DNA of 13,095 bases. Source: an uncultured bacterium (GTDB lineage Bacteria; Hydrogenedentota; Hydrogenedentia; Hydrogenedentales; JAEUWI01). The stretch's first letter is position 1; each line of letters opens with the position of its first letter. Shown piece after piece: positions 1 through 13,095 of this stretch. Made by a program: the position numbers and the translations under genes. Where the stretch lies: NCBI GenBank assembly GCA_963977445.1, contig CAXBPH010000201.1, forward strand, positions 1-13,095, in the 5' to 3' direction. The notes beneath the pieces are model-generated. The model was not told the origin of the DNA. It saw only the letters and a program-made list of their open reading frames with translations, and did no database searches.

Positions 1-54
1 GAAGGTGAAGGTGAAGGTGAAGGTGAAGGTGAAGGTGAAGGCGAAGGCGAAGGC
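1..54 (+). repeat. GAAGGY hexamer tandem repeat encoding (Glu-Gly)9, truncated by the window edge
   Basis: gaaggt/gaaggc repeated nine times in frame. Confidence 0.95.
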
Positions 55-378
55 GTCGGAAACCTGGAACAAATTGCCGACGACCTGCTCACCGACTTTA
101 ACGACCTCGACGATGATGATAACGGCAGCCTCTCTATCGACGAAGCGCGGCGCGAGACACCCAGCCTGACGGCAGCCCAATTCAACACCCTCGACACCGA
201 CCACAACGGCGAACTCAGCCAGGCCGAACTCCGGGCCCAGCTACCGACGACCGGCGCAGGCTGTGCGGCAAAGATGAGCACTATAAATTCGGCCATTACG
301 GGGAAGCTCGAAGCACTCTTCCTACTCAGCATGACGGTCATGATTCTTGCCACCTGGCCCCAAGCCAAGAGCCCATAA
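1..378 (+). CDS. C-terminal fragment of a surface/secreted protein: (EG)n linker, two EF-hand-like Ca-binding loops, Gly-Cys motif plus hydrophobic tail (5' partial)
   Basis: Frame +1 is open from base 1 to TAA at 376-378: EGEGEG...VGNLEQIADDLLTDFNDLDDDDNGSLSIDEARRETPSLTAAQFNTLDTDHNGELSQAELRAQLPTTGAGCAAKMSTINSAITGKLEALFLLSMTVMILATWPQAKSP*. DDDDNGSLSIDE and DTDHNGELSQAE fit the 12-residue EF-hand loop. Absent from the ORF track because the start lies outside the window. Confidence 0.85.
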   Translation, partial: EGEGEGEGEGEGEGEGEGVGNLEQIADDLLTDFNDLDDDDNGSLSIDEARRETPSLTAAQFNTLDTDHNGELSQAELRAQLPTTGAGCAAKMSTINSAITGKLEALFLLSMTVMILATWPQAKSP

Positions 379-403
379 TCTTTCACCCAATCGTGGAGCC
401 TGT

Positions 404-1378
404 CACCCGGGGACTGCACCGACCCGCCTACGTAGTGGCAGCGTGATGCTGTCTTGGTGCCAAGTAGAATGCGGGTAAAGCGGATGTCCTTGATGGTCGG
501 GGCCGTCCCCCTGAGGGCAGTGACACTCGGGGGGACGGCCCCGACGCTCAAAGCTTGTCTTCGTGGGTCCCTTTGTCTTTGGCACCCCATAAACGTACTC
601 GATTCAAAACATGGCGTGGTCGGTGCAGTCCCCTCCCGCCAGCCACAAGGAGATCACAAGATGAATAATCACCGCACAGGGACAGACTCGCCCCCATGCC
701 GTTCCACACCAAAGCACACGCCCCGCTAAACAAGACGACTCCTCCAAGGGCCGACAACCACGGTGGGCGTGGATGTCATGTTGTTGGCGAAGTCGACCTG
801 ACCCGATCCGGAAGTTTCTTAGGCTCAGGGCGTGACACCCGGGGGGACGGCCCCGACGATCTACGCTTGTCTTCGTGGGTCCCTTTGTCTTTGGCACCCC
901 ATAAACGTACTCGATTCAAAACATGGCGTGGTCGGTGCAGTCCCCTCCCGCCAGCCACAAGGAGATCACAAGATGAATAATCACCGCACAGGGACAGACT
1001 CGCCCCCATGCCGTTCCACACCAAAGCACACGCCCCGCTAAACAAGACGACTCCTCCAAGGGCCGACAACCACGGTGGGCGTGGATGTCATGTTGTTGGC
1101 GAAGTCGACCTGACCCGATCCGGAAGTTTCTTAGGCTCAGGGCGTGACACCCGGGGACTGCACCGACCTGGAATACGTGGTGGCAGGGCGACGATATCTT
1201 GGTACCAAGTAGAATGCGGGTAAAGCGGATGTCCTTGATGGTCGGGGCCGTCCCCCTGAGGGCAGTGACACTCGGGGGGACGGCCCCGACGCTCAAAGCT
1301 TGTCTTCGTGGGTCCCTTTGTCTTTGGCACCCCATAAACGTACTCGATTCAAAACATGGCGTGGTCGGTGCAGTCCCC
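404..1378. repeat. Modular REP/REPIN (BIME-like) array, module order A-B-C-B-C-A-B
   Basis: The motif GGGGAC(T/G)GC(A/C)CCGAC and its reverse complement occur as five inverted pairs: ~409/510, ~531/633, ~843/945, ~1153/1255, ~1276/1378. B+C repeats at a 312-bp offset. A+B repeats at a 744-745-bp offset. Confidence 0.85.
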
Positions 1379-1425
1379 GCAGCGCGTCAAAAACAAAATC
1401 ATAGTAAGCAAGCGTCGGTACGCCA

Positions 1426-1455
1426 TTGAGGTCCACCGTGGCAGAATGGTAGTCT
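1426..1455 (+). promoter_or_regulatory. Possible sigma-70 promoter for xylA
   Basis: TTGAGG (1426-1431), 18-nt spacer, TAGTCT (1450-1455) preceded by TGn (extended -10). Confidence 0.35.
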
Positions 1456-1506
1456 GTCCCGCGTGAATAGACGCAAAACCCCATTCCTACAGTGGAGAGA
1501 ATCACC

Positions 1507-2820
1507 ATGGCCGAATATTTCCCGACCGTTAAGAAGATAAAATACGAAGGCCCCGACAGCAAGAATCCCCTGGCCTTCAAACATTACAAAGCGACCCAGA
1601 AGGTCCTCGGTAAGACCATGGAAGACCACTTCCGTTTTGCCGTCTGCTATTGGCACACCTTCAAGGGCCTCGGCACCGATCCCTTCGGTGGACCCACGAT
1701 GATCCGGAGCTATGACGACGCCCCGACGGTCGACGGTCAGATCGAGCAAACCATGGACGCGGCCTTCGAGTTCATCAGCAAGCTCGGTGTCCGTTTTTGG
1801 TGTTTCCACGACGCCGACATCGCCCCCGAAGGCGAGACGCTGGACGAATCCCAACGTCGTCTCGACACGGTCGCCAAGCAGGCCAAAAAGCTCCAGAAAG
1901 AGTCGGGCATCAAACTGCTCTGGGGCACGAGCAATATGTTTTCCCACCGGCGCTTCATGTCCGGTGCGGCGACCAATCCCGATCCCGCCATCTTTGCCTA
2001 TGCCGGCGCCAAGGTCAAGAAGGCCATGGAAGTCACCAAATATCTTGGTGGCGAAGGTTACGTATTCTGGGGCGGCCGCGAAGGCTATGAAACCCTCCTC
2101 AACACCGACATGGGACGGGAACTCGACCGCCTGGCCCGCTTCCTCCACATGGCCGTGGACTACAAAGAAAAAATCGGCTTCAAGGGACAGTTCTTCATCG
2201 AACCCAAGCCCAAAGAGCCGACAAAACACCAGTACGACTTCGACGCGGCCAGCTGCCATGCCTTCTTGCAGAAGTATGACCTGGACAAACATCTCAAGCT
2301 CAATATCGAAGCGAACCATGCCCCCCTCGCTGGCCACACCTTCCACCACGAGCTCGAATATGCCGCAGCCAACGACCTCCTCGGCTCGGTGGACGCCAAC
2401 CGGGGCGACGAGCTGCTGGGTTGGGACACAGACCAGTTCCCCACCAACCTCTACGACACGACCCTCGCCATGTACACCATCCTCAAGGCAGGCGGTTTCA
2501 AATCTGGTGGCCTCAATTTCGACGCCAAACTGCGGCGCCAGTCCATCGACCCCGAAGACCTGTTCCACGCCCACATCGGTGCGATGGACGCCTTCGCCCG
2601 GGGCCTCAAGGCCGCTGGCAAGATGGTGAAAGACAAACGACTCGAAAAAATCGTGCAGAAACGCTATGCCGGTTGGGACACAGCCTTTGGCAAGAAAATC
2701 GAGTCCGGCAAGGCGACCTTGGATGACATGGACGCCTACACCCGCGCAAATGGCGAGCCCGAGCCCAAAAGCGGCCAGCAGGAACTGCTGGAAAACATTC
2801 TGAACGAATATATCGTATAA
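1507..2820 (+). CDS. xylA: Xylose isomerase (class II)
   Basis: Motifs FAVCYWHTF, FHDADIAPEG, WGGREGY, FIEPKPKEPTKHQYDFD, NIEANH, GWDTDQFP, GGLNFDAKLRR, SGQQELLE. ATG at 1507 follows the GGAGAG RBS, preferred over the GTG at 1492. Confidence 0.98.
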   Translation: MAEYFPTVKKIKYEGPDSKNPLAFKHYKATQKVLGKTMEDHFRFAVCYWHTFKGLGTDPFGGPTMIRSYDDAPTVDGQIEQTMDAAFEFISKLGVRFWCFHDADIAPEGETLDESQRRLDTVAKQAKKLQKESGIKLLWGTSNMFSHRRFMSGAATNPDPAIFAYAGAKVKKAMEVTKYLGGEGYVFWGGREGYETLLNTDMGRELDRLARFLHMAVDYKEKIGFKGQFFIEPKPKEPTKHQYDFDAASCHAFLQKYDLDKHLKLNIEANHAPLAGHTFHHELEYAAANDLLGSVDANRGDELLGWDTDQFPTNLYDTTLAMYTILKAGGFKSGGLNFDAKLRRQSIDPEDLFHAHIGAMDAFARGLKAAGKMVKDKRLEKIVQKRYAGWDTAFGKKIESGKATLDDMDAYTRANGEPEPKSGQQELLENILNEYIV

Positions 2821-2839
2821 TTCTATGGATCCCATATAC

Positions 2840-2867
2840 GGTGGTGGCTTCGGTCACCACCTTTTTT
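2840..2867 (+). terminator. Rho-independent terminator after xylA
   Basis: GGTGGTGGC-TTCG-GTCACCACC followed by TTTTTT. Confidence 0.92.
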
Positions 2868-2884
2868 GTATCTGGCACCTGACA

Positions 2885-2913
2885 TTGCCCTCTGAGGGCG
2901 ATGAATGTACAAT
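2885..2913 (+). promoter_or_regulatory. Sigma-70 promoter for the msrB-msrA fusion
   Basis: TTGCCC (2885-2890), 17-nt spacer, TACAAT (2908-2913). Confidence 0.6.
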
Positions 2914-2915
2914 TA

Positions 2916-2931
2916 TGTGATCCTTGTCACA
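2916..2931. promoter_or_regulatory. CRP/FNR-family (or Rex-like) operator palindrome
   Basis: TGTGA-TCCTTG-TCACA is an exact TGTGA-N6-TCACA with AT-rich flanks, immediately 3' of the -10 box. Confidence 0.6.
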
Positions 2932-2959
2932 AAAGCCTCTGAACGGGAGTTTCGCCATT

Positions 2960-4210
2960 ATGTCTGCCAAAAAAATGACACTACCTCAAACCATGTTAAC
3001 TTTGGTCATCGTGGGGGCAGCCCTTGGTCTTGGTTGGCGCGTCCTCATGCCCATCGTCGACGCCGCAGGCTCAGGCACGAAGAACGCCGGGGCAACATTC
3101 GAGCCCGACGGCCCCATTACGATTCGCACCTTCACCAAGGACGGCACACTGAGTGAACCCGTCACGACGGAGCCGGTCGTCCTCAGCGAAGCCGAATGGA
3201 AAAAACGACTCTCGGCGAATCAGTACAACATTCTCCGTGAAAAAGGTACGGAACGTGCCGGTACCGGTGCCCTCTTGAAAAATAAGAAAGAAGGCGTCTA
3301 CACCTGCGCAGGCTGCAAACTGCCCTTGTTTGAATCCACGACCAAGTTTGAGTCTGGCACCGGCTGGCCCAGTTTCTTCTCCCCCATCACCAAAGAAAAC
3401 GTACTCGAAGAATCCGATAACACCTATGGCATGGTGCGCACCGAAGTGCTGTGTGCCCGATGCGCTGGCCACTTGGGACACGTATTCAACGACGGCCCCA
3501 AACCTACGGGCCTCCGCTATTGCCTCAACTCGGCCTCCATTGAATTTACCGAGAATGATAACCTCAAGAGCCTCGCGGAAGAGCCCAAAATCATCGTTGC
3601 CTCAGCGGCATCGGGTGATACGCTCCCCTTCGTCACCCAAGATGTACCGCTGGCAACCGAATCGGGTAGCGCCAAGCTCGTTGTCGGCCTCGGTTGCTTC
3701 TGGTGCTCCGAGGCGGTCTTTGAGCAGCTGGATGGGGTGACGGACGTCATTTCCGGCTACGCCGGCGGCGATGCCAAAGGGGCCAACTACAAAGCCGTCT
3801 GCACCGGCACAACGGGTCATGCCGAAGTCATCGAGATTAGCTATGACCCCTCAAGAATCACCTATGGACAGCTGCTTCGGGTGTTCTTTACCGTCCATGA
3901 CCCCACCACCCTGAACTATCAAAAACCGGACAGTGGCACCCAATACCGCTCCGCCATTTTCTATCAAAGTGATGCCGAGAAGGCCCTCGCCGAAGCCTAT
4001 ATCGCTCAATTGACAGCCACAGGTAAATTTGGCGGTCCCATCGTCACTACCTTGGAACCCCTCGAAAAGTTCTATCCTGCCGAAGAGTATCACCAGGATT
4101 TTGTGAAGAAAAACCCCAACCACGGATATGTCCAGGCGTGGGCCGTGCCCAAGTTACACAAGCTGGAGAAAATGTTGAAGGCCGACAAGGCGGCAGCATC
4201 AAAAGGCTGA
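2960..4210 (+). CDS. msrAB: Bifunctional peptide methionine sulfoxide reductase, MsrB then MsrA domain, with N-terminal membrane anchor/signal
   Basis: MsrB motifs [45 protein letters not shown]. MsrA motifs [44 protein letters not shown]. Hydrophobic N-terminus [18 protein letters not shown] at 2960 follows GGGAG. Confidence 0.95.
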
Positions 4211-4227
4211 ACCCAATCACATTTCAG

Positions 4228-4266
4228 AGAGACACGTCAGCAGACCGGTGACGTGTCTCTTTTTGT
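4228..4266 (+). terminator. Rho-independent terminator after msrAB
   Basis: AGAGACACGTCA (4228-4239) pairs with TGACGTGTCTCT (4249-4260), followed by a T-run. Confidence 0.88.
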
Positions 4267-4485
4267 CTCGCCGTAGGGCAATACGTCCAAAAAGACTACG
4301 ATGCCCCCAGCATGGAACCTTTCTGGGTCAAGGTGGATTACACACCAACGTCGTCGCCCGGGCAACAAAGACTCCAGGCACGTGAAACGCCCCATACTCC
4401 CGGAAGTGGTCCCGAAATTTTATGACCGCGCCACAATGTGCTAGCATACGCGGACCGGGGTAAACTCTTTGTCAAAAGGATTAAC

Positions 4486-5655
4486 ATGCAGTTCCACACG
4501 CCATTTCGGGCAGCCGTCACCACCCTTGTATTTTTTTCCAGCCATCTGGCCTCCGCCGACCAGACCCAGCTCAAAGACGGCTCTTTGCTGGTGGGAGACA
4601 TCCAACAATTGAGCGAAGCGGTCCTTGGTATCAACACGCCCTACGGCCCCCTCTCCGTACCTTGGGACCAGGTCGCGAATCTCAACACGGCAGCGCCGGT
4701 CACGGTCAATCTGGAAGACGGCACCCAGGTAGCAGGCGTGCTCAACGCCGTAGACGGCCAACAGTTTGTACTTGGAGAAGGCACCGAGGAAATCCCCTTG
4801 ACCCTGACCGCCGTTACCGCCATCGCACGCGTCCCCGATGAGACCGAGGCACCGGCCGATGCGGAAGCTGCACCAGCAATGACGGAGGCCGACGAAGCAG
4901 CCGCTGCCGCACCAGCGATCTGGAAGGGTCGCGCGGAATTCGGTCTCAATGGCCAGTCCGGCAACAAGGAGCGCATCGATATGCGCTTGGGCATCGACGT
5001 CAATCGGGAAGCCGAGAACACCCGTCTGAATCTCTATTTGAAGGGTGAATACGCCGAAACCAATCGCGAAAAATCCGCCAATGAAGTCATGGGTGGGGCC
5101 CGCCTCGAGTATGATTTCAGCGAGCGGACCTATGTCTTTGCCAAGGTGGACCTGGAGTATGACGAATTTGAAGACCTTGACCTCCGTGCCACCGTCACCA
5201 CAGGTCTGGGTCATTTCTTCGTAAAACGAGAGAAGCTGGAGCTCAAAGGCTGGGTCGGTGCCGGTTACGAGCACGAGACCTTCACAAAAGACGCTGAACC
5301 CCTGCCCAGACCAACCAATTCCGAAGAATACGTGCGTCAGGCGCTACGTAGTCAGTTTATCGACAACGAGATCACCACCACCGAAGATTCTGCGGTCGTT
5401 GAGCTCGGCTACACCCTGCGGAAAGACTTCAAAGAGAACTTCCGCTTTAAACATGGCCTCACCTACTATCCTTCACTCGACAACCCCGGCTCCGAGTATC
5501 GCCTCGTCGCTGACACGGGCTTCGAATTCCCCCTCGGGAAAGAGCCCGACTGGACGCTGCGCACCGGTGTTCACCACGAGTACGATGCGACGCCCCGGGA
5601 AGGCATCGAGTCACTGGATACGACCTACTATCTGAACCTTGGTTACAACTGGTAA
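4486..5655 (+). CDS. DUF481/YdiY-like outer-membrane beta-barrel protein with signal peptide and small N-terminal domain
   Basis: Signal-like N-terminus ending HLASA-DQ, then LKDGSLLVG, an Ala/Glu/Pro linker, WKGRAEFGLNGQSGNKE, YDEFEDLDLR, alternating beta-strand pattern and terminal LNLGYNW (BAM-type aromatic C-terminus). ATG at 4486 follows AAGGA. Confidence 0.8.
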   Translation: MQFHTPFRAAVTTLVFFSSHLASADQTQLKDGSLLVGDIQQLSEAVLGINTPYGPLSVPWDQVANLNTAAPVTVNLEDGTQVAGVLNAVDGQQFVLGEGTEEIPLTLTAVTAIARVPDETEAPADAEAAPAMTEADEAAAAAPAIWKGRAEFGLNGQSGNKERIDMRLGIDVNREAENTRLNLYLKGEYAETNREKSANEVMGGARLEYDFSERTYVFAKVDLEYDEFEDLDLRATVTTGLGHFFVKREKLELKGWVGAGYEHETFTKDAEPLPRPTNSEEYVRQALRSQFIDNEITTTEDSAVVELGYTLRKDFKENFRFKHGLTYYPSLDNPGSEYRLVADTGFEFPLGKEPDWTLRTGVHHEYDATPREGIESLDTTYYLNLGYNW

Positions 5656-5685
5656 ATCACCCCACCACGCCGGAGAAGAATTTTC

Positions 5686-5811
5686 ATGGATTATGATGAC
5701 CTGACCCAAACCTTTATCGACAGCTTCATCAACGTCATCATTACGGTACTTCAAGAGTACTTTGGTGCCGTATTTGAGCTTATCGACACCATCCTGCTCT
5801 TAACTTCCTGA
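5686..5811 (+). CDS. Small acidic/hydrophobic hypothetical protein (41 aa)
   Basis: GGAG RBS at 5672-5675, ATG 5686, TGA 5809-5811: MDYDDLTQTFIDSFINVIITVLQEYFGAVFELIDTILLLTS. Fills the gap between the DUF481 gene and the convergent rtcR, with C-ending codons like its neighbours. Confidence 0.6.
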   Translation: MDYDDLTQTFIDSFINVIITVLQEYFGAVFELIDTILLLTS

Positions 5812-5855
5812 GCCTATCGCGGTGTTGCGGCTGGATGCCCACCCCCCGGTCGCTT

Positions 5856-7463
5856 TCATCCTTCCACCACCTGCGCCCAACTCAGCCCAAACTTGGCCAA
5901 GTACTTTCCGAGCCTGTCTGCGTCATTCGTCGACTTCCGCTTCACGCGGGACACGGCGAAGAGCGTCCGGCCAGCCTCAGAAAGACTGCGGCTTTCCCGA
6001 CATACCCGCACCACCTCGGCCAATTGCACCCGATCAAAGGGGTCAATATCGGCAATGGCTTCGGACGATAATACCCGTCTCAGGGTTTCCCGCCCCGGGT
6101 CGACCGTCGTCCCTTCCCAGTCATGGCGAAGCCGCTCTATCTCCCGGTCCACTTCCCGCAGCGTAATGCGCCCGCCCGTCGCCAGGGTCATCATGCGGGT
6201 CACCGCTGCGCCCAGATCCCGAAAATTTCCATTCCACTTCCCCTCGGGCCCCATGGCGAACTTCAAAAATTTCGCCCGGGCCTCCTTATTAAACTGCACG
6301 TGGGTACCGCGTCGCTGAATATTCTTTTCCAGCTCGAATTCCAGGTTAGGGGCCAGGTCTTCCTTTCGGTCCCCCAATCCAGGCAAGGTGAAAGACCACA
6401 AGTTGATACGGGCCAACAGGTCTTCCCGAAAACGCCCTTCGACCACTGCATTCTGCAGGTCACGATTGGTGCCACAAATAAGCTGAAAATCGCTCTCTGC
6501 CGACCTGTCTGAGCCCACGGGAAGGAAACGCTTCTCCTCAATCGCCTGGAGCAACATGGCCTGCTCGTCCAGGCCCAACTCCCCCACTTCATCGAGAAAT
6601 AAGAGGCCTTTGTCCGCCGTTCGGAGCAATCCAGGGCGGTCCGTCGTCGCCCCCGTGAAGGAGCCTTTCACATGACCAAACAAGGACGCCATGGCCGTAT
6701 CCCCCCGCAGGGTCGCGCAGTTCACGGAAACAAAGTCCCCCTGCAGTCGTTGACGCAATTGCTTCAACGCGTAAATCTGGCGGGCGAGCTGCGATTTTCC
6801 CGCGCCCGTCGGTCCCGCAAGCAATATGGGCTGCCGACTGTTCACCGCTACCGTTTCCACCTCGTCAATCAGGGCATTGAAGGCGGCATTCTTCGTCTGA
6901 ATACCCAACTTGAGCAGGGAAACATCATCACGGTGTTCCTGCTTGAATCGCTTCGCCAACTGGTCATATTTCGAGAGGTCCAGGTCAATAGTGCTCCAGT
7001 TTCCCGGACTCCGCGCTCCCTCCTCGCGCCCCGGTCCCGTCTGCAACAGCTTCCCCGGCAGGTAGCGCGTCTCGGTAAGCAGGAAGAGACAAATCTGAGC
7101 AACGTGGGTGCCTGTCGTGAGATGAACCAGATACTCTTCCTTTTCCAGGTCGAAAGGATAATTCCGGGCAAACTCAAAGAGCATGGAGTAGACCTCCACA
7201 AAATCCCAGGGATCTTCACAGTGGGCGTCGTGGAGATTCACCTTTGTAGCGGCTGAAATCTCCCCAATGTCCGCACATACCCGCTTCGCGGTGCGAAAGT
7301 GTTTTTGCGACGCAAGCAGCTCGAAACGGTCCACCGCGAGATCGTCATGACGACACAAATCTACCGAGGGCCGCCATCGTTCCCAACGGGCCTCGCCCCG
7401 GCCATGGGCATCGAGCACCGTGCCCAGGAAGCCGATTACGACGGTTTTCTTCTTTTTCGACAT
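5856..7463 (-). CDS. rtcR: RNA repair transcriptional activator RtcR (CARF sensor, sigma-54 AAA+, HTH)
   Basis: N-terminus KKTVVIGFLGTVLD...RWERWRPSV, DPWDFVEVY, HLTTGTHVAQIC, Walker A GPTGAGKS, GHVKGSFTGA, LFLDEVGELGLDEQ, FREDLLARINLW, GNFRDL, and C-terminal SLSEAGRTLFAVSR...NDADRL.KYL.KFGL. Confidence 0.97.
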   Translation of the reverse strand: MSKKKKTVVIGFLGTVLDAHGRGEARWERWRPSVDLCRHDDLAVDRFELLASQKHFRTAKRVCADIGEISAATKVNLHDAHCEDPWDFVEVYSMLFEFARNYPFDLEKEEYLVHLTTGTHVAQICLFLLTETRYLPGKLLQTGPGREEGARSPGNWSTIDLDLSKYDQLAKRFKQEHRDDVSLLKLGIQTKNAAFNALIDEVETVAVNSRQPILLAGPTGAGKSQLARQIYALKQLRQRLQGDFVSVNCATLRGDTAMASLFGHVKGSFTGATTDRPGLLRTADKGLLFLDEVGELGLDEQAMLLQAIEEKRFLPVGSDRSAESDFQLICGTNRDLQNAVVEGRFREDLLARINLWSFTLPGLGDRKEDLAPNLEFELEKNIQRRGTHVQFNKEARAKFLKFAMGPEGKWNGNFRDLGAAVTRMMTLATGGRITLREVDREIERLRHDWEGTTVDPGRETLRRVLSSEAIADIDPFDRVQLAEVVRVCRESRSLSEAGRTLFAVSRVKRKSTNDADRLGKYLAKFGLSWAQVVEG

Positions 7464-7538
7464 TGATAATTATTCCTTCACCTGTCGCGCCGCCCCGCTT
7501 CGACGGAAGCGGAATGGTAACTATCACGGAGCACCGCG

Positions 7539-7726
7539 CAAAGGATCTTGGACATTCCTGTCCGAGGCAAGGCACTCCCAGGCATGGCCGCGCTATTGCC
7601 GTCTGTCGCAAAAACTCGAATCACAAGGGTAGCCCCCTGAATACTGTGGGGTTTCGATGCTTGAACATCGTACCCTTGGACACACCAGTGTGCTTTGCCT
7701 CGGACAGGAATGTCCAAGATCCTTTG
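7539..7726. repeat. 37-bp inverted repeat pair (36/37 match) flanking a 114-bp core; REPIN/MITE-like element
   Basis: CAAAGGATCTTGGACATTCCTGTCCGAGGCAAGGCAC (7539-7575) and GTGCTTTGCCTCGGACAGGAATGTCCAAGATCCTTTG (7690-7726). Each arm has an internal palindrome GGACA-N4-TGTCC. Confidence 0.85.
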
Positions 7727-7791
7727 TACCTACGCCCCCGGCACCATGCTGCCTTCCAATAGCCGCCTGCCGACAAAATACTTTCCTCGCA

Positions 7792-7915
7792 AATTTTATA
7801 AGTCACTATCCCACAGCCTAGCCCATTCGTCAATAAAAAATATATCCGACAAGATATCGCACTTCAGCTTTACCAATTTACCCTTTTATTTACGGCCCTT
7901 TCATAAACATAAAAG
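7792..7915. promoter_or_regulatory. AT-rich upstream activator region; candidate RtcR site ATATC-N6-GATAT (7842-7857) and possible IHF/bending tract
   Basis: AT-rich island in a GC-rich genome. The palindrome lies about 100-115 bp upstream of the predicted sigma-54 start, a typical enhancer distance. Confidence 0.5.
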
Positions 7916-7929
7916 TGCACCGTGGACTA

Positions 7930-7946
7930 TTGGCACGGCTCGTGCG
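7930..7946 (+). promoter_or_regulatory. Sigma-54 (RpoN) -24/-12 promoter divergent from rtcR; predicted start ~7957
   Basis: TTGGCACGGCTCGTGCG: GG at 7932-7933 and GC at 7944-7945, the canonical spacing of TGGCACG-N4-TTGC, next to a sigma-54 activator gene. Confidence 0.88.
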
Positions 7947-8186
7947 TTACGCACTTCAGTTGCGCGCACACCACGCCGCAACGTCACACAGTTGAATCAA
8001 GGACGCTTGCCAGGACCGCAACACCGGAAGGTACACGGCTCCCCTGGTACGTGGCTTGTCCAAACCGGACAAGTAATAGACGCTGACGCCCCGAGACCGG
8101 CGGCGCGGTTCGCCCAACACCCTTAACCGGATGCCATTGGCGTTCCGCGTTCCGTGAACGGGTTCTAAACTCTGGTGTCAGAAGCC

Positions 8187-8253
8187 CGGAGATGGCTCAC
8201 CGGTAGAGCCCGATGGTATCCCCATCGCACAGGTTCAACTCCTGTATTTCCGA
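8187..8253 (+). ncRNA. tRNA-like unit 1 (aberrant, probably non-decoding)
   Basis: Acceptor CGGAGAT/ATTTCCG (7 bp), D-arm GCTC-ACCGGTA-GAGC, stem CGATG-GTATCCC-CATCG, T-arm ACAGG-TTCAACT-CCTGT. Only 1-nt linkers before the D-arm and T-arm, and no encoded CCA. Confidence 0.75.
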
Positions 8254-8325
8254 ACACGGGTAGCTCAGTTTGGTTAGAGCATCGGCCACAAGCCGACAGT
8301 CGCGGGTTCGATTCCCGTCCCACAC
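8254..8325 (+). ncRNA. tRNA-like unit 2 (5-nt anticodon loop, 3-bp acceptor)
   Basis: TA-GCTC-AGTTTGGTTA-GAGC D-arm, TCGGC-CACAA-GCCGA stem, CAGTC variable region, GCGGG-TTCGATT-CCCGT T-arm. The acceptor pairs only GGG/CCC. Confidence 0.78.
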
Positions 8326-8803
8326 TCTTGAAACGAGTGCACCGTTCCGCAAGGAACACCAGAAGCCTCGAAGGAGGCGGTTTGCGTCTGAATGCCGTCG
8401 CACGGGAAGCCCATGAAGCCCGTCTACCGTGAACCTTTGTGGTCACGGGGAACGAAGCAGATCGGGCCGCCGGGCGACAACAGGCAAGACACCATGCGGC
8501 CGTTGGCGTTCGACTACGGACGAAACATTGGGATGTGCTGCCGAAAGCCCCTGCCAAGGCAAGGCTATCTTCAGCATCGGAACAATGGACCCCCTTGGGG
8601 GGGCGAGATGCTCCGGCAACTCACCCGAAATCCGCAGCGTATCCACCGGCCCCGTGTCGACCCCGTGCAATCAGGCACAGACCGTCTCCTGACGGGCCAA
8701 CTAACAAGCGGCTGACTGGCTATCCACAGGATGCCAGCGACCATAGAAATCACTTCGGTGATGCAATAAAAATCCGGAAATATCCCAGGAAAGGAGGAAC
8801 ATC

Positions 8804-9937
8804 ATGATACATACCATCGCAACCCTTGCACGGCACACATGGACCCGCGTCCGCGTGCGGAAACACGAAATCGGACTGCTCTTCAAGGATAACGCCTTCG
8901 AGGCCATCCTCGAGGCGGGAGCACACCACTTTTTCGACCCCTGCGGTCGCCTCATGGTGAACCTCCTGGACGAGCGAAGTGCCGTGTGGACCCATCCCTA
9001 TATGGATGAGGTAATCAAGGCAGGTGCTTTTGAAAACCGGGCTCTGGTGCTGGACTTGAAGGAGAATGAGCGGGCCATCGTGACGGTGGACGGCATGATC
9101 CGACTGGTTCTCGACGCCGGGCGGCACGTCGTACCCAATACCCTGAAAACAGTAACCGCGGAAGTGCTAAGCACCGATGAGATTCGCTTCAACCATGCCC
9201 GGATGAATGCGATCCTCAACACCGGTGGTACGGCGGCTATCTTCAGCGTCCATCAGGTTGAAACCGGTCAAGCGGGCCTCCTGTATGTCGACGGCGTGTA
9301 TCAGGATACGCTGACATCCGGGCGTCATGTCTTCTTCAAAAAAGTGGGTGTCGTCAAAATTCAGATGGTCGACCTGCGGGAGCGGGTGCTCGATGTCGGT
9401 GGCCAGGACATCATTACGGAAGACAAGGTCTCCATCCGCCTGAACGCCGTGGTGGCCTACCGGGTGACGGACGCCCGACGTTTTGATGAAGCGACGGAGG
9501 ACGGAGGCCAGACCCTCTATCGGGACACCCAGCTCGCACTGCGGGCAACGGTAGGTACACGCAACCTGGATACGCTGCTGGCGGAAAAGGATGCTGTCAC
9601 CCAGGAACTCGCAGAAACCCTGCGGGCCCGGGCCGAGCAGCTGGGATGCGTGGTGCTCAATGTGGGTATCCGGGACATTATCCTTCCCGGTGACATGAAG
9701 GACCTGATGAACAAGGTTACCGAAGCGAAAAAGGTGGCGGAAGCCAACCTCATCGTCCGGCGCGAAGAAACGGCAGCCATGCGGAGCCAGGTAAACACGG
9801 CGAAGCTGCTGGAAAACAACCCCACGCTCATGCGACTTCGTGAGCTGGAAGTACTGGAAAAAATCGCAGGCCAGAATAAGCTCAAAATCATGTTGGGCGA
9901 AAAAGGCCTCAGCGAGCGGGTGATGAACCTGCTCTAA
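8804..9937 (+). CDS. SPFH/Band-7 domain 'slipin' family protein
   Basis: AGGAGG RBS at 8792-8797. Three repeated N-terminal beta modules (EIGLLFKD..LEAGAH, ERAIVTVDG..LDAGRH, QAGLLYVDG..LTSGRH), then SPFH core VDLRE..GQDIITEDKVSIRLN, QLALRATVG..LDTLL, GIRDIILPG, RREETAAMRS, NPTLMRLRELE. Confidence 0.92.
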   Translation: MIHTIATLARHTWTRVRVRKHEIGLLFKDNAFEAILEAGAHHFFDPCGRLMVNLLDERSAVWTHPYMDEVIKAGAFENRALVLDLKENERAIVTVDGMIRLVLDAGRHVVPNTLKTVTAEVLSTDEIRFNHARMNAILNTGGTAAIFSVHQVETGQAGLLYVDGVYQDTLTSGRHVFFKKVGVVKIQMVDLRERVLDVGGQDIITEDKVSIRLNAVVAYRVTDARRFDEATEDGGQTLYRDTQLALRATVGTRNLDTLLAEKDAVTQELAETLRARAEQLGCVVLNVGIRDIILPGDMKDLMNKVTEAKKVAEANLIVRREETAAMRSQVNTAKLLENNPTLMRLRELEVLEKIAGQNKLKIMLGEKGLSERVMNLL

Positions 9938-9977
9938 CACGAGCAGGTTGACGTGGGCTGTGGCAGTCCGGGGACGG

Positions 9978-10020
9978 GCCGCTTCCGGTGTTCTTTAGAG
10001 CACCGGGAGCGGCTATTTTC
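9978..10020 (+). terminator. Terminator hairpin closing the RtcR-dependent unit
   Basis: 16-bp stem GCCGCTTCCGGTGTTC-TTTA-GAGCACCGGGAGCGGC (two G:U pairs) followed by TATTTTC. Confidence 0.8.
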
Positions 10021-10281
10021 ATTCCTACGGTCGCCAAACCGCACAGGTTGGCGAACTCATTAAACCCAGCGAGTCGAAGGATATCGCCGTTCTCGTTCAC
10101 ACCCGGGAACCGGGCAGAAACCCTCAGGACGGGCTGCACGGGCGGGTATTCCTGTGGGAACGATGAATCAGCGAGGTGCGGGCGGAGCGCCAAACAACGG
10201 AACCCGCTGTGCCCGAGTAATGGTTGGAACCCAAAAGGGAAAATTCACTTCCATCCAAACGTGCCCCGAAGCGGTCATTTA

Positions 10282-10290
10282 TGCTACAAT
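10282..10290 (+). promoter_or_regulatory. Extended -10 sigma-70 promoter candidate for the helicase
   Basis: TGCTACAAT matches TGn-TACAAT, about 70 bp upstream of ATG 10363. Confidence 0.45.
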
Positions 10291-10362
10291 CCCTCTCCTT
10301 AAGCCGAAGTGGGCAACGGCAGTTTTATACGCCCCGAATACCAAGGATGGAACACGCCATAC

Positions 10363-13044
10363 ATGCGACATGCTTTACGACTTTCCCCCGGCGGGCAATT
10401 GCGCTGGGAGTCGCTACTTGACGATGCCAAAGGCCTCGCGCCTCTACAACAGCGATTTTCTGAAGACTGGCGGGTCGGTTTGTTTGCCCTCGCGGCAGAT
10501 AAACTTTCGGTGGATACCTATCCCACGTTGCTCTTCTGGCAGGAATTTTCCAGCCATTTTCTCACGACCCTGTGCCACATCCCCGGCAATACGGATGAGG
10601 TGGTGGTACCCCGACTCAGTGATGAAGAAATAGAGTCCATTGTGCTTCATGCGCCGCCCATGACGGGTGGCGAGTATCTATCCGTAACGATGCTGGGGCG
10701 CATCTGGAAGTCTCTCGAAACCTGGGTGAATGATCGGGCTGCCCTTGATGGCGGACTGGAAGCCTTTCTGCGCCAGCATGCGCCCGCGTGGCACAAAGTC
10801 GGCATGGTCTGTTTCCAATTGGCCGAAAACCCATCGGACTCCGGTCGGCCCTTCGCCTATATGGCCACCTATACACCGGGATTTAACGCGGCAGGCAACC
10901 TGAAGCACCTCCCCCTCCGTAGTGCCATCGAACAATTCACCGAATCAGGCAATGAATCTGCCTTGCAGAAGCTGCTCAACCCCGTCCGTCTGGCCGGCAA
11001 GCGCTGCCCCTGGGTTAAAGATCTGCTGGAGTCGGGCGAGGTCTATGAGGCGTGCGCCTGGACGACTCCCGAAGCCTATCGGCTATTGCAGGACGCGGAA
11101 GTGCTTGAAGAATGTGGTTTGGCCCTGCGACTTCCCGATTGGTGGAAAAAGCGGGCCCGTCCTCAGGTGGCCGTGACCATTGGTGACGAAACCATGACCG
11201 CCATGGGTGCCTCCGCACTCCTGGACTTCAAGATGGATATCGCCCTGGGCGATGAACATCTCACCGACGACGAAGTAAACGACTTGCTCCTGGGTGATGA
11301 TGGACTGGTCCTTTTGAAAGGCCAATGGATTGAGGTAGACAAGGCCAAGCTCAATGAAGCCCTGGCCCATTGGCGGGCCATCGAAGAGACCGTCAAAGAT
11401 GGTGAAATCGATTTTATAGAGGGAATGCGTCTCTTGGCGGGTGCTTCCAAAGATCTCACCGCCGAAGTAGAGGCCGACGACGATCACGACTGGGTCCATA
11501 TCACGGCAGGTACGGCCATGCGCGAGCTACTGGCCAACCTCCACGACCCAGCCAATCTGGACACCCTGAATGCACCGGAAGGCCTCAAGGCCACCCTGCG
11601 CCCCTATCAGCATGACGGCCTCGCCTGGCTCCACCTCTTGAGCGAGCTCGGCCTTGGTGCCTGTCTGGCAGACGACATGGGCCTGGGTAAAACCGTCCAG
11701 GTCCTGGCAGCACTCCTTTGTCGGCGACGGGACGAACGGGCGGACACCCTGCCCCCCGCGCTCCTCATTGTGCCCGCATCACTCCTGGGCAACTGGAAGA
11801 ACGAATCGAACCAGTTCACACCGGCCCTGCGAATTTCCATTCTTCACGCTTCCGAAATGGACCCCGAAGAAATGGATGTGCTCGCGGACGAAGAAGACCC
11901 CAATCGCTTTGCCAATATCGACGTCCTCATGACGACCTACGGCATGATTACCCGACTGGATTGGCTCCAGAACCTCGTGTGGGACATGCTAATCCTCGAC
12001 GAAGCCCAGGCCATCAAAAATCCGGGCACCCGTCAGAGCAAGACCATCAAGAAGTTACAGGCCCGCTCCCGGGTTGCCCTTACCGGTACGCCCATTGAAA
12101 ACCGCCTGGGTGACCTGTGGTCCCTCTTCGATTTCCTGAATCCCGGCCTCCTCGGCTCGGCCAGTGTCTTCAAGACCTTCCTGAAGGGCCTCCGCGCCCG
12201 GGAGCATGATCACTATGCGCCCCTGCGCCGCCTGGTCAACCCCTATATCCTTCGGCGGCTCAAGACCGACCGCAGCATCATTGCCGATCTGCCGGACAAG
12301 ACAGAGACGACCCGGTACTGCAATCTTTCCAAGACACAGGTACGCCTTTACCAGAAAACCGTGAACGCCATGACGCGCGCCCTCGAGCATGCCGATGGAA
12401 TTTCACGTCGTGGCCTGGTCTTGCAGACCCTCATGCGCCTCAAGCAGATTTGTAACCATCCGAGCCAGCTTTCGGGTGACGGAGAATACCGCGCCAGCCA
12501 CAGTGGCAAGTTTCAGCGCCTCGCCGAGATCTGCGAAGAACTCGCCGAACGCCAGGAACGTGTGTTGGTCTTCACCCAGTTTCGCGAAATCATCCCGGCA
12601 TTGGAAGAGCATCTGGCCGAAGTGTTTGGCCGTCGCGGCCTCGCCCTCCACGGCGGCACGGCCGTCGGCAAACGCCGCACCCTCGTTGACCGTTTCCAGG
12701 AAGATGACGGTCCGCCCTTCTTCATCCTGTCCATCAAGGCAGGCGGCACCGGGCTGAATCTCACCGCAGCGTCACACGTCATTCACTTTGACCGCTGGTG
12801 GAACCCTGCTGTGGAAAATCAGGCCACCGACCGGGCCTTCCGAATCGGACAGAAGAAAAATGTGCTCGTCCACAAGTTTGTCACCCTCGGAACAGTGGAA
12901 GAACGCATCGACACCCTTATCGAGGAAAAGCGCCACCTGGCCGACGAAATCCTGAGTAGCGATGGTGAAATCAACCTGACCGAATTGGGCGACGACGAAC
13001 TACTCGAATTGGTCCGACTCGACGTAAACCGCGCGACGGTGTAA
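10363..13044 (+). CDS. SNF2/SWI2-family DEAD/DEAH-box helicase
   Basis: LRPYQHDG, LADDMGLGKT, ILDEAQAIKN, LTGTPIENRL, LRRLKTD, LVFTQF, AGGTGLNLTAASHVIHFDRWWNPAVENQATDRAFRIGQ. ATG 10363 is preferred over GTG 10309, but the start is uncertain. Confidence 0.95.
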   Translation: MRHALRLSPGGQLRWESLLDDAKGLAPLQQRFSEDWRVGLFALAADKLSVDTYPTLLFWQEFSSHFLTTLCHIPGNTDEVVVPRLSDEEIESIVLHAPPMTGGEYLSVTMLGRIWKSLETWVNDRAALDGGLEAFLRQHAPAWHKVGMVCFQLAENPSDSGRPFAYMATYTPGFNAAGNLKHLPLRSAIEQFTESGNESALQKLLNPVRLAGKRCPWVKDLLESGEVYEACAWTTPEAYRLLQDAEVLEECGLALRLPDWWKKRARPQVAVTIGDETMTAMGASALLDFKMDIALGDEHLTDDEVNDLLLGDDGLVLLKGQWIEVDKAKLNEALAHWRAIEETVKDGEIDFIEGMRLLAGASKDLTAEVEADDDHDWVHITAGTAMRELLANLHDPANLDTLNAPEGLKATLRPYQHDGLAWLHLLSELGLGACLADDMGLGKTVQVLAALLCRRRDERADTLPPALLIVPASLLGNWKNESNQFTPALRISILHASEMDPEEMDVLADEEDPNRFANIDVLMTTYGMITRLDWLQNLVWDMLILDEAQAIKNPGTRQSKTIKKLQARSRVALTGTPIENRLGDLWSLFDFLNPGLLGSASVFKTFLKGLRAREHDHYAPLRRLVNPYILRRLKTDRSIIADLPDKTETTRYCNLSKTQVRLYQKTVNAMTRALEHADGISRRGLVLQTLMRLKQICNHPSQLSGDGEYRASHSGKFQRLAEICEELAERQERVLVFTQFREIIPALEEHLAEVFGRRGLALHGGTAVGKRRTLVDRFQEDDGPPFFILSIKAGGTGLNLTAASHVIHFDRWWNPAVENQATDRAFRIGQKKNVLVHKFVTLGTVEERIDTLIEEKRHLADEILSSDGEINLTELGDDELLELVRLDVNRATV

Positions 13045-13052
13045 TCGGGGAC

Positions 13053-13068
13053 GACACGGGGACTGCAC
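13053..13068 (+). repeat. Degenerate copy of the REP-like motif from 404-1378
   Basis: GACACGGGGACTGCAC compared with GACACCCGGGGACTGCAC at 1146-1163, located just after a stop codon. Confidence 0.55.
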
Positions 13069-13095
13069 GAATGGCGCTTACTTAAGGCCTCTTTT

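Follow-up and report, generated by a model that had tools for sequence, protein, structure and literature searches.

A 13,095-nucleotide (nt) stretch of DNA from an uncultured Hydrogenedentota bacterium (assembly GCA_963977445.1, contig CAXBPH010000201.1, positions 1–13,095 of the forward strand; the whole stretch is called the window below) carries two adjacent tRNA-shaped units, which we term unit 1 and unit 2, upstream of a gene for a soluble protein of the Band-7 (SPFH, stomatin-like) family. Unit 2 is homologous to tRNA-like elements that precede related Band-7 genes elsewhere and shares their architecture. Both units are under selection for a cloverleaf and its D/T elbow, neither is under constraint for decoding, and they stand in synteny with rtcR, a sigma-54 promoter and the Band-7 gene. 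The sequence data make it very likely that the two units are folded domains of a single noncoding leader RNA of ~750 nt, which would run from the sigma-54 promoter at 7931–7945 to ~8700, divergently from rtcR. As to function, we consider it probable that this leader RNA, with its b7a (band 7-associated) core and the inserted unit 1, is made together with the SPFH protein as a scaffold with a tRNA-like handle; the scaffold mechanism taken by itself, which is argued by analogy, is tentative. A b7a-tRNA was reportedly predicted in RtcB/RtcR RNA-repair operons by Burroughs and Aravind in Nucleic Acids Research in 2016.

The source genome amounts to 7.1 Mb in 464 contigs and is 94% complete, and ARAGORN detects 42 ordinary tRNA genes on its other contigs. 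Six congeners carry the whole region at 75–80% identity; two of the loci used, L004 and L089, are identical in sequence. Relatives of the Band-7 protein were sought in contigs taken at one genome per species, where 214 were confirmed; the 80 loci kept come mainly from Planctomycetota, with Desulfobacterales and others also represented. Unit 2 was aligned in 67 sequences, namely the window, the six congeners and 60 others. Because the members of this alignment were chosen by their D- and T-arm motifs, the pairing statistics carry a bias in the D and T arms; the stems of the acceptor and anticodon played no part in the choice. Covariation was controlled with 500 shuffles and with slid pairing partners. 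Two covariance models were used, one of the tRNA-like core, built without this genus (R1, here the core model), and one of the 5' leader domain, trained on 59 loci outside this genus (R2, here the leader model).

The two units and the RNA around them

The predicted promoter and the predicted parts of the leader RNA are as follows.

7931..7945, + strand: predicted sigma-54 (-24/-12) promoter, TGGCAC-N5-GTGC; the window has no other match, chance expectation being 0.09
7958..8068, + strand: genus-specific 5' stretch with conserved hairpins, seen as blocks in the seven-genome alignment; boundaries inferred, the start from the promoter position
8069..8187, + strand: conserved 5' leader domain of the b7a-type RNA, as matched by the leader model, with a closing stem of 8083–8090 with 8174–8181
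8187..8253, to 8256 with its tail, + strand: unit 1, a compact cloverleaf that comprises a 7-base-pair (bp) acceptor, small D arm, hairpin unfit for decoding and T arm and ends in the tail A-ACA
8258..8321, + strand: unit 2, a b7a tRNA-like core with a 3-bp acceptor, a D arm, an anticodon-type arm with a 5-nt loop, a 5-nt variable region and a T arm
8323..8339, + strand: hairpin directly 3' of unit 2, CACUC-UUGAAAC-GAGUG, conserved with covariation and with equivalents in other phyla
8344..8357, + strand: second short hairpin, GUUCC-GCAA-GGAAC, 100% paired, with compensatory changes in 3 of 5 pairs
8365..8697, + strand: large 3' domain of ~330 nt, closed by a long-range helix of 8365–8384 with 8679–8697

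On its sequence, the core in unit 2 is a tRNA body whose acceptor stem is shortened to three pairs, GGG/CCC. These enclose a D arm (GCUC-AGUUUGGUUA-GAGC), an anticodon-type arm in which the stem UCGGC/GCCGA closes the 5-nt loop CACAA, and a T arm (GCGGG-UUCGAUU-CCCGU). The Rfam tRNA model recognises the unit at 40.5 bits (gathering score 29; E 8.4e-06 for the window), with a match that covers only model positions 5–66 of 71. ARAGORN, for which the preliminary description of the window had anticipated pseudo or undetermined calls, reports 0 tRNA genes in the window. Neither unit 1 nor unit 2 has the features expected of a decoding tRNA, that is, a full acceptor with CCA, a 7-nt loop with U33 and a purine at 37, and detection by ARAGORN.

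A unit with D and T arms is found 300–900 nt upstream of the Band-7 gene in 61 loci, and in 60 of the 72 loci having at least 700 nt of upstream sequence; in the window, 482 nt separate the end of unit 2 from the Band-7 open reading frame (ORF). Across the 67 aligned sequences, 99.8% of the cells are paired and 12 of the 17 pairs show compensatory changes. This covariation is matched by 0 of 500 shuffles, and the slid controls are 27–48% paired. The most strongly covarying helices are the acceptor and anticodon stems. Beyond the three acceptor pairs none more can form in 41 of the 67 members, and the full seven are possible in 1 of 67. The anticodon-type loop measures 7 nt in 62 members, the window providing the sole 5-nt case. 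Within those 62 seven-nt loops, the triplet at positions 34–36 is unconstrained, as evidenced by 30 different triplets; U stands at position 33 in 33 of them and C in 27, and positions 32, 37 and 38 are tRNA-like. With the core model, unit 2 scores 69 bits, and values of up to 72.9 bits are reached by genuine tRNAs from this genome. Since the model cannot separate unit 2 from true tRNAs, the assignment of unit 2 to the b7a class rests on the truncated acceptor, the flanking domains and the synteny. In a few loci (L022:5460-5560, L045 and L049), what lies upstream of Band-7 is only the T arm with the 3' part of the core, or a core with a degenerate D arm; these may be decayed or variant forms of the RNA.

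Unit 1 is built differently. Its acceptor stem has 7 bp (CGGAGAU/AUUUCCG), its arms are joined by linkers of 1 nt each, and its D arm (GCUC-ACCGGUA-GAGC) has GG in the loop. The hairpin CGAUG(G)/(C)CAUCG, when read as a 7-nt loop, presents AUC followed by C; the T arm is ACAGG-UUCAACU-CCUGU, and the 3' tail is A-ACA in place of N-CCA. The preliminary description had pointed to the 1-nt linkers, the nominal ATC followed by a pyrimidine and the missing CCA of unit 1, to the 5-nt loop and three acceptor pairs of unit 2, and to canonical D and T arms in both, all of which are seen in the sequence. It had treated the deviations as defects of the units. The 3-bp acceptor of unit 2 holds up, but as a trait of the family, and the 5-nt loop and the missing CCA turn out to be peculiar to this genome. 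Against the Rfam tRNA model unit 1 scores 24.8 bits, under the gathering score of 29 (E 0.018 in 1.4 kb), and against the core model 29.6 bits. Each of the two units is single-copy in the 7.1-Mb genome.

In all seven distinct genus copies the minimum-free-energy fold of unit 1 is a four-way cloverleaf. Of the acceptor cells across these copies, 44 of 49 are paired, with compensatory changes, and by our reading of the pair table a two-sided, pair-keeping change has occurred at position 1 and at each of positions 3–7. All 35 cells of the T stem are paired, and the T loop is UUCRAYU in 7 of 7. The anticodon-type hairpin differs wholly in sequence between copies and is paired in every one, with loops of 3–7 nt; the window copy is 79% identical to its nearest relative, and the hairpin stem is nonetheless fully re-paired. 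The D loops measure 3–7 nt in the predicted folds and contain GG in all copies, as we read the sequences. N-CCA is encoded in six of the seven copies, the window having ACA. A conserved aminoacylation identity was considered and rejected, a G3-U70 pair being present, by our reading, in just one congener.

Unit 1 is found in 7 of 7 genus sequences and only there, being present neither in the 59 non-genus loci nor in three other genomes of the phylum. The alignments identify it as a genus-specific insertion between the leader domain and the core, because the leader-model match stops at the first base of unit 1, whereas elsewhere the leader abuts the core. The latter arrangement holds for the training loci of the model and for three genomes of another family of the same phylum (in L120 position 1606 is both the end of the leader and the start of the core). 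As predicted from its fold, unit 1 retains the acceptor/T minihelix and the elbow and cannot decode.

Both units are conserved with compensatory changes in relatives and are thus more than chance resemblances. Since the elbow is retained under selection and the decoding features are absent, they are better described as structural mimics than as pseudo-tRNAs. The preliminary description had proposed just this, mimicry rather than decay, and the near-complete pairing, the compensatory changes and the free triplet of the unit 2 family bear it out, together with the seven cloverleaves of unit 1. The specific roles that it had offered as examples, a decoy for anticodon nucleases, a source of RtcR ligand or a ligase/nuclease adaptor, gain no support from these data. 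Its suggestion that homologues would keep the D and T loops with a variable anticodon loop agrees with the 30 triplets of the unit 2 family and with the GG and UUCRAYU of unit 1. Ordinary functional tRNAs with randomly scattered substitutions, the case that it had named as contrary, were not seen in the relatives.

The units are embedded in further conserved structure. The leader model matches 8069–8187 at 58.4 bits (E 5.3e-13), which is its sole strong match in the whole genome. A second locus was rejected: the next match, on contig C145 at 25.5 bits, looks spurious, and the genome has no second Band-7 gene of this type. The leader domain, ~100 nt directly upstream of the core, is common to all loci, and 13 of its 16 predicted pairs show compensatory changes (66 sequences). 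Of 135 genomes of the phylum, 10 have the RNA by the leader model, made up of 7 of 9 in this genus, the window counted, and 3 of 54 in one other family.

On the 3' side, RNAalifold applied to the seven congeners over 8319–8712, a region that takes in the 3' domain and the two hairpins, predicts 82 pairs with compensatory changes in 38. This level is reached by 0 of 500 shuffles, and slid partners give 7–18 such pairs; the structure was predicted on the same alignment as was tested, which favours the result. Sequence blocks of the 3' domain are common to other phyla. Among Rfam families, none other than tRNA accounts for the leader RNA region. A protein gene in the 480-nt spacer before Band-7 was also considered and rejected, the ORFs at 8392–8715 and 8439–8807 having no Pfam family and no tblastn relative in the 80 loci.

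The operon and its relatives

The genes and repeats that flank the RNA in the window are the following.

5856..7463, − strand: rtcR, a sigma-54-dependent activator with an RtcR/CARF-type N-terminal domain
7539..7726, no strand assigned: two inverted copies of a 37-nt repeat (7539–7575 and 7690–7726), 97% complementary, between rtcR and the promoter and outside the RNA
8804..9937, + strand: soluble SPFH/Band-7 (stomatin-like) gene, Pfam Band_7 at 95.9 bits
10309..13044, + strand: SNF2-family helicase with a DUF3670 N-terminal domain (Pfam), in the same order in congeners

The rtcR product matches Pfam RtcR (260 bits) and Sigma54_activat, as well as NCBIfam RNA_repair_RtcR at 783.5 bits against a cut-off of 650, and it is the only RtcR in the genome (one PF06956 match). 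The sigma-54 motif is kept in 7 of 7 aligned genus sequences. The distance between rtcR and the promoter is ~140 nt in two congeners and 468 nt here, because the insertion of a repeat element has displaced the promoter. The 37-nt repeat occurs in many copies on other contigs, in tandem on contig C48, and at this site in none of the congeners. The gene order in congeners is msrAB, rtcR, promoter, RNA, Band-7, SNF2 and a gene with SWIM and helix-turn-helix (HTH) domains, the last of which lies past the end of the window. The ORF at 9988–10302 has no tblastn match in four congener loci.

The Band-7 protein is related to stomatin both in sequence (E 1.8e-20 against a stomatin in the PDB) and in fold (Z 18). 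Its structural model, with a predicted local distance difference test (pLDDT) score of 81.8, contains no membrane helix. In this model, three tandem five-stranded beta units (residues 13–56, 80–123 and 147–190) are followed by the SPFH core and a long helix. The third beta unit matches what is normally the N-terminal part of SPFH domains of the stomatin type, and the first two are extra. Only alignments with vault protein span the extra units (model residues 14–339, Z 10–11, root-mean-square deviation 5.7 Å), and these are weak. The solved relatives of the SPFH protein are assemblies of 16 to 26 chains.

The operon contains no RtcB, RtcA or RlaP; the SNF2 helicase and the SWIM and HTH protein are found instead, and RtcB was found neither in the window nor in the operons of the congeners. 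The source genome has its rtcB and rtcA on contig C154 (L003:246-4255, minus strand), where they apparently form an operon behind a 519-amino-acid PcfJ-like protein, with no RtcR adjoining. A sigma-54 motif upstream of this rtcBA cluster was rejected, the three one-mismatch matches all lying below position 2,400, with 2.4 expected by chance and the first gene starting at 4255 on the minus strand. Among the 80 related loci, RtcR adjoins in 3. RtcB and/or RtcA follow 3' of Band-7 in 5 (both in L006, L015 and L016, RtcB alone in L027, RtcA alone in L028), and RlaP follows in 3 (L025, L058 and L068). An SNF2 helicase occupies this place in 0 of the 80 outside the genus, and of the 66 loci in which the downstream sequence extends to at least 3 kb, 57 have no RtcB, RtcA or RlaP. 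In one locus linked to a tRNA array (L058:7248-12306), Band-7 is followed by a 1195-amino-acid SMC/AAA_23-like ATPase and an RlaP nucleotidyltransferase. PADLOC assigns the Band-7 protein to no defence family, and its matches to the SNF2 protein are confined to the generic helicase cores of ZorD, DpdE and DrmD.

In Planctomycetota, the homologous RNA and the Band-7 gene are found at the 3' end of same-strand tRNA arrays of 10–39 genes, with a conserved order that ends in His, Trp, Thr, several Arg and Cys. Among the 56 loci with at least 3 kb of upstream sequence, arrays of at least 10 tRNAs are present in 28 and of at least 20 in 22, the maximum being 39; examples are L058:719-5376, L050:2029-5321 and L068:1391-5315. 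L068 comes from a complete genome, in which 26 of the 69 Rfam tRNA hits fall, by our tally, in one stretch of 4.1 kb, and one of these, which covers model positions 3–68 only, is taken to be the b7a core. The array is supernumerary, since the other 43 hits sit elsewhere in the genome. The preliminary description had overlooked the larger conserved RNA, the b7a-tRNA prediction already in print and the absence of an RNA ligase gene from the operon.

A scaffold role and its alternatives

The mechanism that we favour would begin with tRNA damage, upon which RtcR would fire the sigma-54 promoter; in Salmonella, RtcR is activated by tRNA fragments, according to the accessible text of PMC7790460. The RNA would then be co-produced with three proteins, namely the SPFH protein, the SNF2 helicase and the SWIM protein; an SPFH gene, PaFlo8, is likewise found inside the rtc locus of P. 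aeruginosa (PMC13086221). Much as Y RNA works with Ro, the RNA may use its tRNA-shaped domains as a handle on a scaffold ribonucleoprotein formed with the cage-forming SPFH protein. Such a handle could recruit, or compete for, elbow-recognising proteins, whether repair, end-processing or cleaving enzymes. Unit 1 would most likely be a site for RNase P or 3'-end processing, because it has a full acceptor/T minihelix and, in congeners, an encoded CCA. Cleavage there would cut the leader from the core or release a small, stable tRNA-like RNA.

Several observations weigh against a scaffold with a tRNA-like handle. Among the sequencing runs listed for this stretch none was of RNA, and one was a DNA run with a share of 0.04. 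The core-model score was rejected as a sole test of b7a membership because true tRNAs score equally high. The copies in this genome carry two derived defects, unit 1 having ACA for CCA and unit 2 a 5-nt loop that none of the other 67 aligned members shows, and these could reflect relaxed constraint. Since the operon has no RNA ligase, and rtcB and rtcA are found on a different contig with no sigma-54 motif upstream, a repair-scaffold role is less direct here than in RtcB-linked loci. Finally, the available portion of PMC13086221 describes the deletion of PaFlo8 as having no phenotype in growth, motility, biofilm, virulence-factor and peroxide tests.

An alternative that we regard as unlikely is that the RNA is a cis-acting regulatory leader, a 5' untranslated region that senses a tRNA-binding protein, damaged tRNA or the SPFH protein and so sets the translation of, or the read-through into, the Band-7, SNF2 and SWIM genes. 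The location of the RNA suits this explanation: the promoter precedes it and the first gene follows it, and no terminator-like site was found on the + strand from 7464 to 8900; throughout the genus it keeps its place ~100 nt before the Shine-Dalgarno sequence and ATG; and it is 5' of Band-7, at 300–900 nt, in every one of the 61 loci. However, in Planctomycetota the RNA follows long tRNA arrays and has no promoter of its own nearby, and in some of those loci a hairpin and U-run stand before Band-7, which fits a separate RNA product. In addition, ~600 nt of covarying structure is large for an attenuator, and the CCA encoded by unit 1 points to processing.

Less probable still, in our view, is that the units are decoys or sensors for anticodon nucleases, which would either soak up ribotoxins or yield 2',3'-cyclic-phosphate fragments that feed back on RtcR. 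The anticodon-type arm of the unit 2 family is in keeping with such a target in its predominant 7-nt loop, its tRNA-like positions 32, 37 and 38 and its free triplet. Position 33 argues otherwise, as the frequent C at this position (27 of 62 loops, with U in only 33) means that the U-turn read by many anticodon nucleases is not kept. Moreover, the 5-nt loop of unit 2 in the window and the 3- to 7-nt hairpin loop of unit 1 are poor mimics of an anticodon loop, and YrlA of Salmonella is not cleaved by a damage-induced nuclease, as far as the accessible part of PMC7790460 extends.

That the units are neutral relics, functionless tRNA genes in decay such as the tail of a lost array, is very improbable: the lack of any ARAGORN tRNA, the sub-threshold Rfam score of unit 1, the lost CCA and shortened loop in this genome and the real tRNA arrays adjoining the locus in other phyla would suit it, but covariation largely excludes it, every helix of both units being kept by compensatory changes in the seven congeners and the 67 family members, with non-random substitutions and with a 3-bp acceptor and flanking domains conserved across phyla.

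Known systems and significance

The closest known system is the b7a-tRNA itself, which, according to the accessible part of bioRxiv 10.1101/312249, was predicted by Burroughs and Aravind in 2016 beside a Band-7 protein and RtcB. The same preprint text notes a strong resemblance to tRNA and a possible redundancy with YrlA, and describes the element as unvalidated. Our literature search found b7a-tRNA mentioned only in this preprint. As in that system, the tRNA-like element here lies directly upstream of a soluble Band-7/SPFH gene, on the same strand, with RtcR and a sigma-54 promoter as neighbours. Unit 2 can be aligned with 66 elements of this kind and has the same flanking domains, the 5' leader and the 3' hairpin and 3' domain, a feature derived from 59–66 loci and not from the literature. 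The window differs in that its operon has an SNF2 helicase and a SWIM and HTH protein in place of RtcB, RtcA or RlaP, and in that a second tRNA-like module, unit 1, is inserted. Furthermore, the printed description, as far as its accessible text goes, likens the b7a-tRNA to an authentic tRNA, whereas here and among the relatives (66 of 67) the element is without a full acceptor and lies inside a structured RNA of at least ~600 nt.

YrlA (RF02553), a bacterial Y RNA that has a tRNA-like domain and is the partner of Ro/Rsr in rsr-yrlBA-rtcBA operons, is likewise an RtcR-controlled noncoding RNA with a tRNA-mimicking D/T elbow, encoded beside a scaffold-type protein. However, RF02553 scores only 19.2 bits in the window against a gathering score of 69, the match merely joining the T arm of unit 1 to the D arm of unit 2, and the genome, 94% complete, has no TROVE/Ro (PF05731) match. 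A permuted YrlA-like fold across both units was rejected: it reaches 19–20 bits, and the two anticodon-type stems are each self-complementary and not complementary to one another, so that the stems of each unit pair within that unit.

The arrays in Planctomycetota invite comparison with long supernumerary tRNA arrays (L-arrays), of which the stress-induced trn operon of Anabaena 7120 is an example (PMC8421152, in its accessible text). The homologous RNA and Band-7 gene close such arrays, and unit 1 has the acceptor, the T arm and, in congeners, the CCA of a tRNA. In contrast, the window has no array, just two non-decoding mimics beside rtcR. In the partly accessible literature that was searched, no printed link between tRNA arrays and Band-7 was found. 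The vault, composed of vault RNA and of major vault protein, which has an SPFH-like shoulder domain, resembles the present pair in its repeated beta units, SPFH domain and long helix and in its partnership with a structured RNA. The best fold matches are nevertheless stomatin (Z 18) and other SPFH cages, and the match over the vault repeats is weak.

Taken furthest, and speculatively, the RNA and the soluble SPFH protein might form a vault-like cage that exposes a tRNA-shaped bait. In Planctomycetota, this particle would then be the module that closes inducible arrays of spare tRNAs, and array, RNA and cage would make up an emergency kit for a damaged tRNA pool. In the present genus the system might have been rewired into an RtcR-driven RNA with two modules, one of them a processable, CCA-ended mini-tRNA, working with an SNF2/SWIM motor in a ligase-free response. 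We consider this extended picture doubtful.

The class to which unit 2 belongs had already been predicted; what is new is the second cloverleaf, of CCA type, the cargo of SNF2 and SWIM proteins with no ligase among them, and the association with arrays of spare tRNAs in other phyla. The large multi-domain RNA around the core may be new as well. RtcR-controlled RNA-repair operons are widespread in bacteria, and the locus bears on the roles of their noncoding RNAs and scaffold proteins. Its tRNA-like element is one domain of a large covarying RNA common to several phyla, which can gain a second tRNA-shaped, CCA-ended module in the course of evolution, and the pair of RNA and SPFH protein is coupled to partners as varied as an RNA ligase, a nucleotidyltransferase, an SNF2/SWIM motor and whole spare-tRNA arrays. 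The locus thereby offers constructs and predictions, concerning processing sites, partners and dispensable domains, for the study of tRNA mimicry in the response to tRNA damage.

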